A DNA stretch of 11,243 nucleotides from Candidatus Heimdallarchaeota archaeon. GTDB lineage: Archaea > Asgardarchaeota > Heimdallarchaeia > Heimdallarchaeales > Kariarchaeaceae. The position numbers and the translations under genes are program-made. The stretch is from assembly GCA_015523565.1 (NCBI GenBank), contig WAKA01000022.1, positions 1 through 11,243 of the forward strand, in the 5' to 3' direction. Positions 1,404 to 11,130 of this stretch are shown piece by piece; the stretch's first letter is position 1, and every line of letters begins with the position of its first letter. The notes under the pieces are model-generated. The model did no database searches. It saw only the letters and a list, made by a program, of their open reading frames with translations, and had not been told where the DNA came from.

Positions 1404-2111
1404 TTGACGGATTTGATTACTCTATTGTTTGCATTTTATCTCATTTCGTTGGGTTTGTTGCTTTCGAGCCTAATCCATCTTCGATGGGGCATTCGGGATG
1501 CAATCCGTGAGTACCTTGTCTTGTCACTGACATTTTTTGCAGGTGCCATATATTCCTTGGGTCTGGCAATTTCGGGCAAGCCAGATCCGACAATCCCTCT
1601 TTTCATATTTTTTTCGTTTTTGGTTCTGGGGACAATGGTTCGCAAGGCAAGTCTTCAAAGCAAGAATCTTATGTTTGGCATTTTATTTCTTCTTTTGATT
1701 CTTGTTCTTTCCAATACTGTCTCCTCCTTCAGAGGCAATTTACGAATTTATGTTGCCTCTTACGAACTTTTCACTGTATTCTGGTTCAATTATGCTTTTA
1801 TTTATTCACGTCCTTTTAGGAATTCAAGGGAGACGACTTTTGTAAAATTCGTGTGGACCATGATTTTAACATTTCTTACATATACATCCGTTCTTCATTT
1901 TCTTCTTTCAGATGAGTTGCTTTATGCATTGAATCTATTGTATACTTTATCTATAATGGCATTGTTCACGACGCTAAAGAAAAATTCCGTACTTTTTTCA
2001 ACTAGACAGGCAGTTCAAATTGCAAAGAAGCTTGCTTCTGAAAATAGGGACAATATTTCGACGATGGATCCCATCAGTTACATTGAAAAAGTGAAAAAGC
2101 ACATAAAGTGA
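1404..2111 (+). CDS. Hypothetical 7-transmembrane protein (235 aa)
   Basis: About 7 hydrophobic segments (aa ~4-25, 37-56, 64-79, 89-106, 115-134, 146-167, 172-190) followed by a short polar tail. TTG start preceded by TATA-like ttttatat at 1377-1384. Confidence 0.8.
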   Translation: MTDLITLLFAFYLISLGLLLSSLIHLRWGIRDAIREYLVLSLTFFAGAIYSLGLAISGKPDPTIPLFIFFSFLVLGTMVRKASLQSKNLMFGILFLLLILVLSNTVSSFRGNLRIYVASYELFTVFWFNYAFIYSRPFRNSRETTFVKFVWTMILTFLTYTSVLHFLLSDELLYALNLLYTLSIMALFTTLKKNSVLFSTRQAVQIAKKLASENRDNISTMDPISYIEKVKKHIK

Positions 2112-2113
2112 AG

Positions 2114-3412
2114 TCAACTAAATGGTTGAAGTGGTTCAAGCTCTGGGAGCTCTTCAAGTTCTGGCAATGGATCCAATTGTGGAAGTGGGTCTTTTTCTTT
2201 TTTGATGATCATTTTCTTCGTTTTTGGTTCTATTCTTTTCATGCTTTTGACATACTTTTTGTCTTTCTCCTCTTTTCTCATTTTCTTAGATCTTTCATAT
2301 GCCTCTTGCAATTTGCCGATGCATTCTTTCATAAGGGATTTCGTAGTTTCTGTCTTTATCATCTTAAGTTTTAGGTCATTTGGATTGCTTTCCAAACCTT
2401 TCTTTGCGACATGTTGGACAAATTTCCTGATTTTGGGTAGATTGTCCATGTATTTTACAAATTTCTCTGTGGCATCTTCCAACTTCATTTCTTCAACTAT
2501 CAAGACGTTTTGCAGGTAATTATCCAATTCTTCCATTGCCAAAATGGATTTGTCAATATCAATGCCTAGCTCATTTGTCATTCCTTTTAGTAGGTTAATG
2601 AATGCGATTGTCTTTTCATGGGCAATTTTGAGTGTCTTGAGATATTTTGAAAATGTCCATTCTTTCAGGTCATATGTTCCATCTTCTGTTTCCACAAGTT
2701 TTAAGTCTAATGTTGCCTCGAATAGACCACTTAATTCTGCTTCAACTAGTTCCAGTTCATTTGGCAATTTCTCAGCTTCTGCAGGGAGGTCTTCCAAAGT
2801 CTCCAATGTATGTTCCAGACTATCTATCTTGGCAAGCAGTGAGGCAAGTTCCTCGTCCACTTGATCTGCTGAAATCAAATTTCTGAGGATTTTCACATGC
2901 AACCTATCAAAAAGGAATGCAATATGTATCTTTTCATGTTCTGTAATGATCTTTCCTCGGCTCAATGCCTCCTGAAACTCAGAATATTTCCTTTTGAATT
3001 CCTTTAAGTCTGTCAAATCATATTTGTCATCATTAATTTTTCTTTTGGCGTATGCCTTGAGTATTACTTCCTTATAATTGGGTGGTATTTTTTGTTCCTC
3101 TTGGGGTTGTGGTTTTTCTCCCCATCCTTGCGGTTGTGTCCACCCCTGTTGTCTTCTTGGCTGCTGCATGGGTGGTTGTTGTGGTTGTGTCCACCCCTGC
3201 TGTCTTCTTGGTTGCTGCATGGGTGGTTGTTGTGGTTGTGTCCATCCCTGCTGTCTTCTTGGTTGCTGCATGGGTGGTTGTTGTGGTTGTGCCCATCCCT
3301 GCTGTCTTCTTGGTGGTGATTGTTGTACTGGTTTTTGTACAATTTTTGTTCCGCAATAAGGACAGAATCTGGCATTTTGCCTTACCGTGCGGTGGCATCT
3401 TGGACATATCAT
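2114..3412 (-). CDS. Zinc-ribbon protein with Q/P-rich GW repeats and long helical/coiled-coil region (432 aa)
   Basis: N-terminal CPRC-x10-CPYC, 17-aa repeats PPMQQPRRQQGWTQPQQ, about 290 aa of L/E/K-rich helical sequence and a C-terminal LPxLE-like repeat. TATA-like ttaataag lies ~25-32 nt upstream of the ATG. Confidence 0.88.
   Translation of the reverse strand: MICPRCHRTVRQNARFCPYCGTKIVQKPVQQSPPRRQQGWAQPQQPPMQQPRRQQGWTQPQQPPMQQPRRQQGWTQPQQPPMQQPRRQQGWTQPQGWGEKPQPQEEQKIPPNYKEVILKAYAKRKINDDKYDLTDLKEFKRKYSEFQEALSRGKIITEHEKIHIAFLFDRLHVKILRNLISADQVDEELASLLAKIDSLEHTLETLEDLPAEAEKLPNELELVEAELSGLFEATLDLKLVETEDGTYDLKEWTFSKYLKTLKIAHEKTIAFINLLKGMTNELGIDIDKSILAMEELDNYLQNVLIVEEMKLEDATEKFVKYMDNLPKIRKFVQHVAKKGLESNPNDLKLKMIKTETTKSLMKECIGKLQEAYERSKKMRKEEKDKKYVKSMKRIEPKTKKMIIKKEKDPLPQLDPLPELEELPELEPLQPFS
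3129..3314 (-). repeat. 51-bp coding tandem repeat (~3.6 copies) encoding PPMQQPRRQQGWTQPQQ
   Basis: Units start at 3132, 3183, 3234 and 3285 (ggttgtg(t/c)cca(c/t)ccctg...). They are near identical, in frame and have no spacers. Confidence 0.95.
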
Positions 3413-3558: not shown

Positions 3559-3572
3559 GAAAACCTTATGTA
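3559..3572 (+). promoter_or_regulatory. Putative archaeal BRE/TATA promoter of the LRR gene
   Basis: gaaaaccttatgta ends ~23 nt before ATG 3595. The same aaaaccttat core precedes the S9 peptidase gene. Confidence 0.5.
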
Positions 3573-3594
3573 TTTTGTTTGCATTGAAACCCTA

Positions 3595-4458
3595 ATGGAT
3601 GAGTGGTGGAAAGATTTGTGTCTATACATGCGGTTGTTGTATGACGGATTAAAAGTTTCAGGAAATTATTTACTGGATTCCAGTGGTTATTACATTGCCA
3701 ACTTTAACCAAGGCAGTTTTTCAATCAATGGCTCCTCAAAGTTTAAAGATGATCCTACGCTTGTAAAAGAGATGCTTGAATATATGCATTCAATATCTGC
3801 CTCTCAAAAAATCAAACGTCTGGCAATCAACAAGGCAGACCTGATTAATTTGGCTGAGTTTTTAATGCATTTCCACGAATTGGAGGATATTGAAATTGTT
3901 GGATGCACAACAAATGGTTTTCCTGATTTTTTGCAATCTTTCAGAAAACTTCGTAGACTTAGGATCGTTAATTGCAGAATTCCACGGATACCTGAATGGA
4001 TTGCTGACTTCAAAAACATGATTTCCTTGGATATTGCACTCAATCAGTTGGAGGATTTGCCTGATAGCTTCAATCGCCTTTACAAACTAGAGAAACTTAA
4101 TCTGTCATACAACAGGTTTATGACTTTTCCAAATATCATCTGTAGTCTTGAAAAGCTAAGGGGTCTTTACATACATAACAACATGATCCATAAAATTCCA
4201 AGAGAAATTAGGAACCTACAAAATCTATCTGAATTAAATTTAAGTGAGAACTGCATTTGTCATTTGTCGATAGATGGTCTATTCAAGTTGCAAGCGCTGA
4301 ACATCAAAGGTAACTTTATGATAGAGCTTCCAAATCTAGATAATTTTCCCTTTCTTTCTGAGCTGTACGTTGGTGGGAACCATTGGAATGACCAATCACT
4401 TAAAAAATTGATGCAACTGCATAATAATGGTGTTTTTGTTTCTTTTGAGGATCAATAG
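3595..4458 (+). CDS. Leucine-rich repeat protein (~9 LRRs)
   Basis: Repeats of about 23 aa with LxxLxLxxN/C (e.g. LRRLRIVNC, LEKLNLSYN, LRGLYIHNN, LSELNLSEN, LQALNIKGN, LSELYVGGN). The ORF track starts at 3568, but that ATG lies inside a TATA-like box, so ATG 3595 is preferred. The 3' end overlaps msrA by 7 nt. Confidence 0.88.
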   Translation: MDEWWKDLCLYMRLLYDGLKVSGNYLLDSSGYYIANFNQGSFSINGSSKFKDDPTLVKEMLEYMHSISASQKIKRLAINKADLINLAEFLMHFHELEDIEIVGCTTNGFPDFLQSFRKLRRLRIVNCRIPRIPEWIADFKNMISLDIALNQLEDLPDSFNRLYKLEKLNLSYNRFMTFPNIICSLEKLRGLYIHNNMIHKIPREIRNLQNLSELNLSENCICHLSIDGLFKLQALNIKGNFMIELPNLDNFPFLSELYVGGNHWNDQSLKKLMQLHNNGVFVSFEDQ

Positions 4459-7990: not shown

Positions 7991-8701
7991 TTATTCACTT
8001 ACTTCTTCTGGGGGATGAGGATAAGGGTTACGGGTTGCATCTATGTCAATGGGGTTTCGAGCCAAGGGTCCTTGTGCAGGGATGGATTCTACATCCTCAA
8101 TAGGCATATTTGCCCATCCTGCCTTGTTTTCAATGCCATCAACTGTCTTTTGAGCTGCTTCATCAATAAATTCTGGGACTTTTGGTCTCTTCCATTTCTT
8201 CCCTGCGGCAATTTTTTGTTGGAGAACACCTATTCCAAAGAAAAGTGCCTCTGGTCTTACTGGACATCCTGGGAGATAGACGTCAATTGGGATTATCTCA
8301 TCTGCTCCACCGATAATGCTGTATGCTTCCCAAAATGGCCCGCCTGATGTAGCGCATTCTCCCATTGCAATTGCCCATTTTGGTTCTGGGATTTGATCCC
8401 AAAGCAATCGAAGCCTTGGTGCCATCTTGTGTGAAACCGGTCCATTCACGACAATTGCATCAGCTTGTCTTGGGGATGGTCTGTAAATGACTCCAAACCG
8501 TTCCCCATCAAATCTACCAACACCTGATGCCATCATTTCAAGTGCACAACACATAATACCGAAAGTCAACGGCCAAATGGAACTTCTTGATAACCAATTC
8601 CTTCTCCCCTCAATGAACCCCTTGGGATCTTTGATTGCATTAACTGTCGATTTAGTTGCATTTTTCAGGAAATCTGCCAAATTTGTGACTTGAAAACCCA
8701 T
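7991..8701 (-). CDS. nuoB: NADH-quinone oxidoreductase subunit B (complex I-like Fe-S N2 subunit), orphan, with C-terminal extension
   Basis: FGIMCCALEMM (tandem Cys), RPSPRQAD, QIPEPKWAIAMGECATSGG and DVYLPGCPVRPEA, giving all four N2 cluster cysteines. Confidence 0.93.
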   Translation of the reverse strand: MGFQVTNLADFLKNATKSTVNAIKDPKGFIEGRRNWLSRSSIWPLTFGIMCCALEMMASGVGRFDGERFGVIYRPSPRQADAIVVNGPVSHKMAPRLRLLWDQIPEPKWAIAMGECATSGGPFWEAYSIIGGADEIIPIDVYLPGCPVRPEALFFGIGVLQQKIAAGKKWKRPKVPEFIDEAAQKTVDGIENKAGWANMPIEDVESIPAQGPLARNPIDIDATRNPYPHPPEEVSE

Positions 8702-9052: not shown

Positions 9053-9718
9053 TTGTTTGGCAAACCTTATGTGGCTGTGGAACTAGATGCAGTATTTTTG
9101 GACGTGGATGGTACTCTAACTCGTGGATTAAGCTGTTGGCAATTGGCACATCGGAAATTCGGGGTTGAGGCACAGTCAAACAGATATTATGAGATGGCTA
9201 TGCGTAAGGAGATTGATTACGATACTTGGGCAAAACTCGATGTCAATCTATGGCGGGGGAAATCAATCGAAGAATTGCGGGATGCCTTACTTCCCCCTAA
9301 ATTATTGGCAGGTGTACGTGAAGGAATTAGCCAATTCAAGGAACATAATGTGAAGGTAATCTTGGTCAGTGGTGGGATTGATATTTTTGTTAATGCTGTA
9401 AAGGATGCTGTAGGGGCTGATCTTGCATTTTCCAATATCGTGCATCATTCTGGGGGATTGATAACTGGGGATATTGATGTCCATGTTGGAACTACAAAAC
9501 AACCAATTCTGGAGTATGTTGCAAGGGAATATGGGGTTGAACTTTCCCGTTCCGGATGCGTCGGTGATCATTACAATGACGTAGACATGTTTAAGTCTGT
9601 TGCTTATCCTATCGCGTTCAATCCCAAAACCCGTGAAATAAAAAAATTGGCAAAAAAAATTGTTATTGGCAATGATTTTAGATTGGCATCAAATGCCCTT
9701 CTTAGTCTTGTTGTATAA
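9053..9718 (+). CDS. HAD superfamily IB phosphatase, phosphoserine phosphatase-like (archaeal type)
   Basis: Motif I DVDGTLT, cap S-x-WQLAH, motif II VSGG, motif III Lys (TTKQP), motif IV GDHYNDVDM and AFNP. Start uncertain (TTG 9053, GTG 9071 or GTG 9077). Confidence 0.92.
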   Translation: MFGKPYVAVELDAVFLDVDGTLTRGLSCWQLAHRKFGVEAQSNRYYEMAMRKEIDYDTWAKLDVNLWRGKSIEELRDALLPPKLLAGVREGISQFKEHNVKVILVSGGIDIFVNAVKDAVGADLAFSNIVHHSGGLITGDIDVHVGTTKQPILEYVAREYGVELSRSGCVGDHYNDVDMFKSVAYPIAFNPKTREIKKLAKKIVIGNDFRLASNALLSLVV

Positions 9719-9792: not shown

Positions 9793-11130
9793 TTGTCAGA
9801 TGCCTTAATTATCCTTGATATGGTAATTCTTTCATTAGCAATGGTTATTACAATTCGTTTTTTCTATTTTTGGCAGATTATGAAATTGAATGAATTAAAA
9901 TTAATGGGGATTGTTTTTTCATTTGCCTATTTGGGGATTCTTGCAAATGTTGCCTCCATCCTAACCAATGCCCTTTTCTGGTTTCAATTAGCTGTATTTT
10001 CCTTTAATGCTGTTGGTCTAACTTTAATTCACTTTTACTTAAATCTTCATTATAATAGGTTAGAGAGAGTAATCAAAATTTTTTCATGGGTCTGGTTTGG
10101 ACTACTGACCATCTTGCTTCTTTTTTGGACGCCTTTTATTCAACCCGAATATGCAAATGTGCTTTTTATTTTCAACAACCTCCCTCATACTCGCGGTGAT
10201 GCACACCCATATGGTGCTGGATTGAAAGTTCCATACAAAGGAAAAGAAACCATAATCTATAGTACCAGCCACCAGCTTTTAGGTATTCTTTTTTGGTTTT
10301 TTTCCGTTTCACTTTCATTGTACCAACTTTATCGCATGGAAGTCCCAGAAAAACAAGCTCCCTCTATCCAAAAACGTATTAACAATGCACGTCGAAATTT
10401 TCTAATAGAAAGGGGATTGCATCTTATTTGGGTTGTTTCCCTCTTTCCAATTTATCCAGTTGCTTTTATTCCCTTATTGTCTTCATTGAACGCATTAGTT
10501 TTGATTTCCTATTCTTTAATTGCCTATACCGTCTTGAAATATCCTGAAGCAATGGTGATGAGCAAGGATCAATTTAAACAGACCTTCGAAAAAATTTCTG
10601 AAGTCTTTTTACGACGTTCTTTTACTAATGAAAATGATACTTATCTGATGACCTTGGTTTCTATCATTGAAAATTATAATTTGGATGATTTGAAAGGTAG
10701 AGGTGTTGTCATCACTGATTTGGAAGAACCCTATGGTTTTTACATTTCCAAATCAAGTCTGATTCGATATCAAAAGACGTTTCACAATATTTTCAACTCC
10801 CTCCTGATTTCCAATTTCATTGCGGCATTTTCCAGTTTTTCAGATGAGATTTTTGATCAAAGTGCTCATTCCCCTCGGATACAACGTATCCGTAATGGTG
10901 AATATGAAGTCTATGTCCTTATAATAAATCAATTGATGTTTGCATATGTGTTCAAGGGGGTAAGCCTTCTTTTGAAAACTAAAGTAGAAAATATCGCACG
11001 GTCTCTTCTTGCAGATGAAACCATCAAAAACTATCTATTGTCTGAAAATGCCAAGCAAGACTTGCAGATTGTTTCCACCATTGATGAAATGGTGAAGGAG
11101 ACGTTTAATACCAGTGAATTAGTTCTTTGA
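9793..11130 (+). CDS. 7TM receptor-like membrane protein fused to a predicted C-terminal longin-like domain (445 aa)
   Basis: Seven hydrophobic segments in aa ~4-248, a long loop between TM4 and TM5 and a basic loop between TM5 and TM6. aa ~302-440 show a beta-beta-alpha-beta-beta-beta-alpha-alpha pattern including LISNFIAAFSSFSDEIF. The CDS is secure, while the domain call is inferred. Confidence 0.85.
   Translation: MSDALIILDMVILSLAMVITIRFFYFWQIMKLNELKLMGIVFSFAYLGILANVASILTNALFWFQLAVFSFNAVGLTLIHFYLNLHYNRLERVIKIFSWVWFGLLTILLLFWTPFIQPEYANVLFIFNNLPHTRGDAHPYGAGLKVPYKGKETIIYSTSHQLLGILFWFFSVSLSLYQLYRMEVPEKQAPSIQKRINNARRNFLIERGLHLIWVVSLFPIYPVAFIPLLSSLNALVLISYSLIAYTVLKYPEAMVMSKDQFKQTFEKISEVFLRRSFTNENDTYLMTLVSIIENYNLDDLKGRGVVITDLEEPYGFYISKSSLIRYQKTFHNIFNSLLISNFIAAFSSFSDEIFDQSAHSPRIQRIRNGEYEVYVLIINQLMFAYVFKGVSLLLKTKVENIARSLLADETIKNYLLSENAKQDLQIVSTIDEMVKETFNTSELVL

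Follow-up and report, generated by a model that had tools for sequence, protein, structure and literature searches.

The gene at positions 9793–11130 (+) of a contig from a Heimdall-group Asgard archaeon is, as judged from AlphaFold2 models, a seven-helix membrane protein of receptor-like shape with a cytoplasmic longin tail. The window, i.e., the whole stretch of DNA that was analyzed, comprises the complete contig of 11,243 bases (G000:C22). The best explanation for this combination, which we hold tentatively and at somewhat less than an even chance, is that of a one-polypeptide membrane signalling protein, in which the seven transmembrane (7TM) helices would sense and the longin would pair with another longin to provide a platform for a GTPase or some other partner.

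The 9793–11130 frame is a single open one and starts with TTG. In the family alignment, the N-termini of the orthologues line up with this start at position 9793; the database copy of the same protein starts at the ATG at position 9820 and has 436 aa. Orthologues from three other species were 61–63% identical to the target and a paralogue showed 45% identity. The full-length AlphaFold2 model, based on a 49-row alignment, had a mean predicted local distance difference test (pLDDT) value of 89.3 and a predicted template modelling (pTM) score of 0.83. Together, orthologue conservation and model confidence ruled out that this is a chance open reading frame (ORF) rather than a gene. Pfam and NCBIfam scans of the target protein returned zero families, with Pfam even at E ≤ 1, and they revealed no kinase, cyclase or MCP output domain, as had been stated in a preliminary description of this DNA.

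Architecture and family of the seven-helix domain

Seven transmembrane (TM) segments were detected in the target by hydropathy, and the full-length AlphaFold2 model placed the helices at residues 2–30, 33–58, 61–83, 91–110, 162–180, 190–215 and 223–249. The modelled helices were in agreement with the boundaries proposed in the preliminary description. Lysine and arginine account for 16 of the 70 residues on the proposed cytoplasmic side vs. 4 of the 55 residues outside, which argues for an N-out, C-in topology. Further, this orientation of the C-terminus, also proposed beforehand, was independently supported by P0015, a 949-aa protein from a Hodarchaeales metagenome-assembled genome (MAG), in which a 7TM domain of the same family is followed by two PAS domains, HisKA, HATPase_c and a receiver (a hybrid histidine kinase), since its kinase core requires cytoplasmic ATP. 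The P0015 fusion also suggests that the 7TM domain is a signal-input module, and the earlier proposal of a receptor gains support from it.

According to the full-length model, the extracellular loop between TM4 and TM5 is folded, with strands at residues 113–116, 120–123, 127–131, 140–148 and 151–157 (block pLDDT 91–98), and its residues G141, A142 and G143 were at least 94% conserved among 35 family members. At the end of TM7, P251-E252 opens helix 8, where conservation within the 7TM family peaks (2.28 bits per column); P251 is invariant, and E252 and Q260 are 97% conserved across the family. The family signature obtained from alignment A3 consists of Q in TM3, W-x(5)-Q-P after TM4, P-x-G-A-G and I-Y-S-T in the TM4–TM5 loop, P-E at the end of TM7 and Q in helix 8. 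The target carries all these elements (Q65, W112, Q117-P118, P139, G141-A142-G143, I155-Y156-S157-T158, P251-E252 and Q260) and matched the hidden Markov model (HMM) of the family with an E value of 5e-81.

The shape of the 7TM part was compared with solved structures by employing an exhaustive VIA search. Apart from longin entries, all of the 50 best matches had the fold of G-protein-coupled receptors (GPCRs), with Z values of 11.7–14.1 and root-mean-square deviations (rmsd) of 3.8–5.1 Å over 200–233 residues. The best match was ADGRF1 (rmsd 4.8 Å, 223 residues), whose Z of 14.1 is borderline because, according to the tool's own note, helical bundles can reach such values by arrangement alone. 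Further matches were a class T receptor (Z 13.7), two designed GPCR-like folds (Z 13.2–13.5) and GPR155 (Z 11.9). Foldseek concurred weakly, with the endothelin B receptor at E 7.7e-4 and TM-scores of 0.25–0.49. The GPCR-like layout given in the preliminary description is supported, at a score that is borderline for helical bundles, and the helix that it placed after TM7 was recovered as helix 8. The target sequence contains no DRY, NPxxY or CWxP motif, and neither the target nor the 35-member 7TM family had any match to the Pfam 7tm families. The domain is GPCR-shaped and lies outside the GPCR sequence families (classes A, B, C, F and T); we refer to it as GPCR-shaped, and not as a GPCR, because its Z values are in the range of bundles and the GPCR motifs are absent. 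The 50 best fold matches include no rhodopsin, and lysine is absent from TM7 up to its cytoplasmic end.

Among 1.84 billion cluster representatives that were searched, there were 55 relatives of the target, only two of which, the orthologue cluster (63%) and the paralogue (45%), resembled it over the full length. Around 45 of the 55 carry the 7TM part alone, mostly as stand-alone proteins of ~290 aa, and the named ones among these derived from Heimdallarchaeota or Hodarchaeales MAGs. The 7TM family was encountered stand-alone, with a histidine kinase, with weak PCI and helix-turn-helix (HTH) matches that lay below the cut-off (P0027), and with a longin. Three further stand-alone members are encoded in the genome of the target itself, two of them in tandem on contig C61. 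Neither the 7TMR-DISM_7TM nor the HisKA_7TM profile matched any of 35 family members at E ≤ 1. A language-model atlas search with residues 1–280 returned no named family at ≥0.9; a lead at 0.88, below the threshold, pointed to a cluster in which 10% of the members have HisKA_7TM.

Given that most family members lack an output domain, the helices may act in their own right, and the 7TM part could be a regulated transporter or channel that moves a solute or an ion, with the longin as a cytoplasmic module that regulates it or binds a ligand. Profilin and GAF-type sensor folds are distant relatives of the longin fold, and a HAD-IB gene kept upstream of the target in four species (see below) hints at a small-molecule context. 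We consider this explanation quite improbable, as neither a transporter nor a channel was present among the 50 best fold matches, the C-terminal domain matched longins well above any small-molecule-binding fold, and the histidine kinase fusion in P0015 points to signalling.

Two loci with partial resemblance to the 7TM family were also observed. Firstly, of two consecutive 139-aa ORFs at L005:156-992 (+), which corresponds to L022:3768-4604 (-), one matches the first half of the family and the next one the second half; this split copy, apparently broken by a stop or a frameshift, is located close to an intact stand-alone copy. Secondly, a 235-aa hydrophobic ORF in the window (1404–2111, +) matched the half of the family that comprises TM5–TM7 and helix 8 with a HMMER E value of 2e-4 and a hhalign probability of 6.7%. 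Other contigs have its counterpart in the same position (L014:1543-2241 and L021:603-1292), next to the zinc-ribbon gene.

The longin domain and its distribution

The AlphaFold2 domain model of residues 280–445 had a mean pLDDT of 80.6. Its C-terminal elements were strands 312–320 and 323–329, helix 336–354, strands 362–368, 371–378 and 381–388, and helices 394–416 and 424–438. DSSP assignments of two independent AlphaFold2 models gave the longin order, with a five-stranded sheet between one and two helices. The longin order assigned in the preliminary description therefore stood, while part of its strand naming had to be revised: GVVITD, its first strand, is a short extra strand only, its second strand is the true first one, and the true second strand, SLIRYQK, had been overlooked.

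Foldseek placed the longins of TRAPP, VAMP7, Sec22b and Ykt6 at the top of the matches to this domain, with E values from 1.6e-4. In the VIA comparison, the best matches were Sec22b (Z 13.0, rmsd 2.8 Å, 121 residues), VAMP7 (Z 13.0) and synbindin (Z 12.6), followed at lower values by adaptor mu/sigma subunits (Z 9.4–11.9), the CPLANE complex (7q3d, Z 10.9), a Lokiarchaeota longin (8yqg, Z 10.1) and Mon1-Ccz1 (Z 8.5–8.8). The roadblock proteins MglB, MP1-p14 and LAMTOR reached Z values of 7.6–7.9 (MglB 7.8) vs. 12.2–13.0 for longins, and no PAS or GAF fold was found among the 50 best matches. On the basis of these models, the C-terminal domain is assigned to the longin fold, and not to PAS/GAF or roadblock, which bears out the topology claimed at the outset.

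With regard to sequence profiles, 7 of 22 longin relatives weakly matched PF19036 Fuz_longin_1 (best E 4.6e-4) and 3 of the 22 matched PF19031 (best E 0.017). A profile of the longin alignment had no match to PDB sequences even at E 10. Conservation was highest in helix alpha-1 (2.95 bits) and in strands beta-3 and beta-5. In the structures of MglB, TRAPP and Mon1-Ccz1, the single-helix face is the dimer and GTPase side. Levine et al. reportedly described in 2013 that this face of longins dimerises and carries the GTPase.

Since SNARE longins (Sec22b and VAMP7) head the structural matches and the adaptor mu/sigma subunits are also among them, the domain could be a longin of the trafficking type, i.e., a sorting or fusion-regulating handle for coat-like or ESCRT-linked Asgard proteins and not a GTPase regulator. 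This appears highly improbable to us. The difference in Z to the TRAPP longins (12.2–12.6) is below 1 and amounts to a tie, no SNARE or coiled-coil segment follows the longin, and the longin is located C-terminally to the membrane part, which is the reverse of the order in longin SNAREs. Further, the weak profile matches go to longins of the Mon1/Fuz type and not to those of SNAREs.

The exact 7TM–longin fusion was found only in the genus of the window. The longin itself is spread more widely: in 61 related genomes, region 303–440 matched the C-termini of many proteins of 600–780 aa, with several per genome, and the representatives that were scanned are TPR proteins. These TPR relatives came from the genome searches, whereas a word-indexed homologue search with residues 295–445 recovered orthologues only. 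Similarly, phmmer with the single longin sequence detected only two paralogues in the target's own genome, and a profile was needed to find the others. The profile search of this genome gave 28 longin-like ORFs. Of these, two encode long soluble proteins (622 and 735 aa) of the size of TPR-longin proteins, at G000:C159:6398-8263 and C180:25620-27824, several consist of a small stand-alone longin, and at least five more encode polytopic proteins that are ~380 aa long and end in a longin.

A second polytopic longin family is thus represented in the same genome, at G000:C185:1855-3021, C154:67-1218, C50:18338-19516, C31:4961-6082 and C204:198-1337 (loci L025-L029). Its longin is homologous to that of the target (hhalign probability 97.3%, E 2.3e-11). 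A common origin of the membrane parts of the two families was ruled out as far as sequence can detect it, with an hhalign probability of 4.8%. In the ESM Atlas, Asgard clusters of 360–436 aa covered most of the model, and TPR-longin, receiver-longin, Arf-like-longin and V4R-longin clusters were also present. The occurrence of the longin tail on TPR proteins and on a second, unrelated 7TM family indicates, at the level of sequence comparison, that the longin is a shuffled module and that the target gene is one genus-restricted combination.

Proposed pairing, possible membrane anchoring and small GTPases

The same organism is also represented by a contig of 129 kb, in which the paralogue of the target (447 aa, same 7TM–longin architecture) starts 117 nt downstream of it on the same strand, at L014:11429-12772 (+), which is equivalent to G000:C13:16-1326. 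The G000 assembly breaks between the two copies, and the three orthologous species have a single copy each. Complex prediction with the two tandem longin domains gave a score of 0.41 vs. 0.00 for the best control, which is weak support for their pairing. Of 80 solved complexes, 58 reached the mark applied in these predictions, as did 2 of 110 mismatched pairs, and scores of ≤0.60 at the mark came from only 7 of the 80 solved complexes and from both mismatches. At least 80% of the contacts agreed between the runs, with a partner pLDDT of at least 76. Longin dimers are present in the PDB, so that the pass may reflect mere likeness to them.

In the signalling explanation that we tentatively favour, the 7TM part would constitute the sensor input, as a member of the same family feeds a histidine kinase in another archaeon. 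The output would be the longin, which would pair with a second longin, either its own copy, that of the tandem paralogue or that of a TPR-longin protein of the genome. The longin dimer would then form a membrane platform for a partner, most likely one of ~30 Ras-superfamily GTPases, and a change of state of the 7TM part would lead to recruitment or switching of this partner.

The same pairing would also suit a passive membrane anchor, whose seven helices sense nothing and hold the longin platform at the membrane, where TPR-longins or other proteins would be constantly recruited. LAMTOR1, which anchors Ragulator, and the TM helix of SNAREs, which anchors their longin, are models for such an arrangement. 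The closest longin relatives are located on soluble TPR scaffolds that could be recruited by longin–longin pairing, the predicted tandem pairing is compatible with it, and no ligand site was identified in the target. A plain anchor, however, needs neither seven helices nor a conserved folded loop with G141-A142-G143 nor an invariant P-E motif, and the feeding of a histidine kinase by the same 7TM domain in P0015 is typical of a sensor. We therefore regard a passive anchor as somewhat unlikely.

Several observations weigh against the sensing and GTPase platform that we propose. With regard to the 7TM part, its GPCR likeness (rmsd ~4–5 Å) falls within the range where bundles match by arrangement, and we could name no ligand-binding residues in the target. 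In a Rosetta-stone test, no longin gene was found beside stand-alone family members in the six loci examined, so that the 7TM–longin link rests on one genus-restricted fusion. As regards the longin, the target itself has no match to Pfam longin families such as PF19036, PF13774 or PF04099, the PF19036 matches of its relatives are weak, its best structural matches are SNARE and TRAPP longins, and longins also have roles unrelated to GTPases. In the genome, which has ~32 Ras- or Arf-type GTPase loci, no GTPase gene lies beside the target or the paralogue, nor was one present beside the three orthologues; the nearest one is separated from the paralogue by ~8.6 kb, an interval with UvrA and ClpB genes on the opposite strand. 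None of the 28 longin-like ORFs had one of the 32 GTPase loci within 5 kb, vs. a chance expectation of ~2 to 3. It has been remarked, in agreement with this last result, that the GTPase genes of Asgard archaea as a rule do not share an operon with longin genes (PMC10933270).

In related genomes, GTPase genes were found next to genes of the longin family. In two species of genus g7, a tandem pair of TPR-longin genes precedes a gene for a 177-aa Ras-family (Rab-like) GTPase, all co-oriented and with gaps of 117 and 92 nt (L035:781-5798 in G032:C76 and L034:1581-6586 in G012:C40); in G012, the second member of the pair is broken up into two ORFs (495 and 198 aa). A TPR-longin gene of G004 lies directly beside a GTPase-containing gene, in convergent orientation. 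Counted as two independent adjacencies among five related genomes, these cases provide modest, non-independent support for the longin family and not for the target gene. The more specific proposal that receptor-shaped 7TM proteins act directly on small GTPases via a built-in longin platform, here a heterodimer of the tandem-encoded receptors, seems unlikely to us.

Known systems and genomic neighbourhood

The TRAPP core (Bet5/TRAPPC1, Trs23/synbindin and sedlin) and the longin SNAREs (Sec22b, VAMP7 and Ykt6) share the fold of the target domain, with Z values of 12.2–13.0 and rmsd of 2.3–2.8 Å over 117–121 residues. However, their identity to it is just 5–16%, and they are either soluble subunits or carry the longin at the N-terminus of a tail-anchored SNARE, whereas the target longin is predicted to be the C-terminal tail of a polytopic membrane protein. 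The only Pfam families matched by the longin relatives are those of the tri-longin Rab guanine nucleotide exchange factors (GEFs), i.e., Mon1, Fuzzy and HPS1 (PF19036) and CCZ1, INTU and HPS4 (PF19031). These GEFs have three consecutive longins per subunit, in contrast with the one of the target, and heterodimerise via the first longins of paralogous subunits; for the target, a tandem paralogue exists, with the weak pairing support described above.

For bacterial 7TMR-DISM and HisKA_7TM receptors, the likeness consists in a seven-helix input with alternative cytoplasmic outputs, the output of P0015 being PAS-histidine kinase-receiver. Neither the target nor its family matched them in Pfam, and we know of no longin output in these receptors. 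Polytopic, partly GPCR-shaped sensors that contact longin/roadblock platforms controlling Rag GTPases are found in the lysosomal LYCHOS (GPR155)-GATOR1 and SLC38A9-Ragulator systems, and GPR155 itself was among the fold matches of the target 7TM part. In these systems, the sensor and the longin/roadblock proteins are separate polypeptides; the resemblance is at most an analogy and implies no homology.

Eukaryotes use the longin fold to control small GTPases, and Asgard archaea possess many eukaryote-like small GTPases and longin/roadblock proteins. To our knowledge, no membrane link has been reported for these Asgard proteins, whose genes are rarely found in operons. A covalent 7TM–longin protein would tether one such platform to the membrane, at the cytoplasmic face of what is probably a sensor, and would be a concrete bait for the ~30 GTPases and the handful of TPR-longin proteins. 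It offers three handles: the independent wiring of the 7TM family to a histidine kinase, a tandem pair suggestive of a heterodimer, and a second, unrelated 7TM–longin family in the genome. If direct action on GTPases were true, the protein would represent a prokaryotic single-polypeptide counterpart of eukaryotic sensor–longin–GTPase pathways such as LYCHOS-GATOR1-Rag, and would reveal in what way the switching of GTPases became linked to a membrane for the first time, prior to the origin of eukaryotes. If no GTPase binds, it would still be a clean case of domain shuffling of a eukaryotic signature fold.

Among the Asgard longin proteins described so far are NPRL2-like longins fused to two-component signalling domains (Liu et al., preprint 10.1101/2020.10.19.343400) and GTPase-longin and GTPase-roadblock fusions (PMC10933270). 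They belong to the same lineage and, as in the target, the longin is shuffled onto varied partners; the structure 8yqg from Lokiarchaeota is a Roadblock-Longin protein. The partner in the target, however, is a seven-helix domain, and a TM or 7TM partner is described neither in 10.1101/2020.10.19.343400 nor in PMC10933270. Of these two papers, only 10.1101/2020.10.19.343400 mentions TPR, in an unrelated passage. Proteins with 7TM have been listed among Asgard eukaryotic signature families (10.64898/2026.10.28.762692), and a literature text search found no paper describing a 7TM–longin protein.

The coordinates of the target features and of the neighbouring HAD-IB gene are collected in Table 1. 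The latter is located directly upstream on the same strand in 4 of 4 species of the genus, with gaps of 11–74 nt, although the genes around it have changed in order or orientation. It may be co-transcribed with the 7TM–longin gene.

Table 1. Positions in the window of the target gene, its predicted parts and the upstream HAD-IB gene.
Feature	Position	Strand	Basis
Whole gene, 445 aa: predicted 7TM domain, helix 8, linker helix and longin domain	9793..11130, stop codon included	+	ORF listing, translation, orthologues, AlphaFold2
Predicted seven-helix TM domain, aa 1-249, N-terminus outside	9793..10539	+	Hydropathy, AlphaFold2, K+R bias, fold matches
Predicted extracellular TM4-TM5 loop, aa 111-161, five-stranded sheet, P-x-G-A-G and I-Y-S-T motifs	10123..10275	+	AlphaFold2, family alignment
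Predicted cytoplasmic helix 8 and linker, aa 250-305	10540..10707	+	AlphaFold2 helices 251-274 (helix 8) and 283-293 (linker helix)
Predicted longin domain, aa 306-445, beta-beta-alpha-beta-beta-beta-alpha-alpha	10708..11127	+	Domain model, Foldseek, VIA
HAD-IB phosphoserine-phosphatase-like gene	9053..9718	+	Pfam Hydrolase and HAD; NCBIfam TIGR01488 above cut-off

Elsewhere in the window, a NuoB-like (Oxidored_q6) gene of 236 aa was found at 7991–8701 (-), and the window contains no further gene for a Nuo or hydrogenase subunit. A 432-aa protein encoded at 2114–3412 (-) has an N-terminal zinc ribbon as its only recognised part, and a 296-aa leucine-rich-repeat protein is encoded at 3568–4458 (+).

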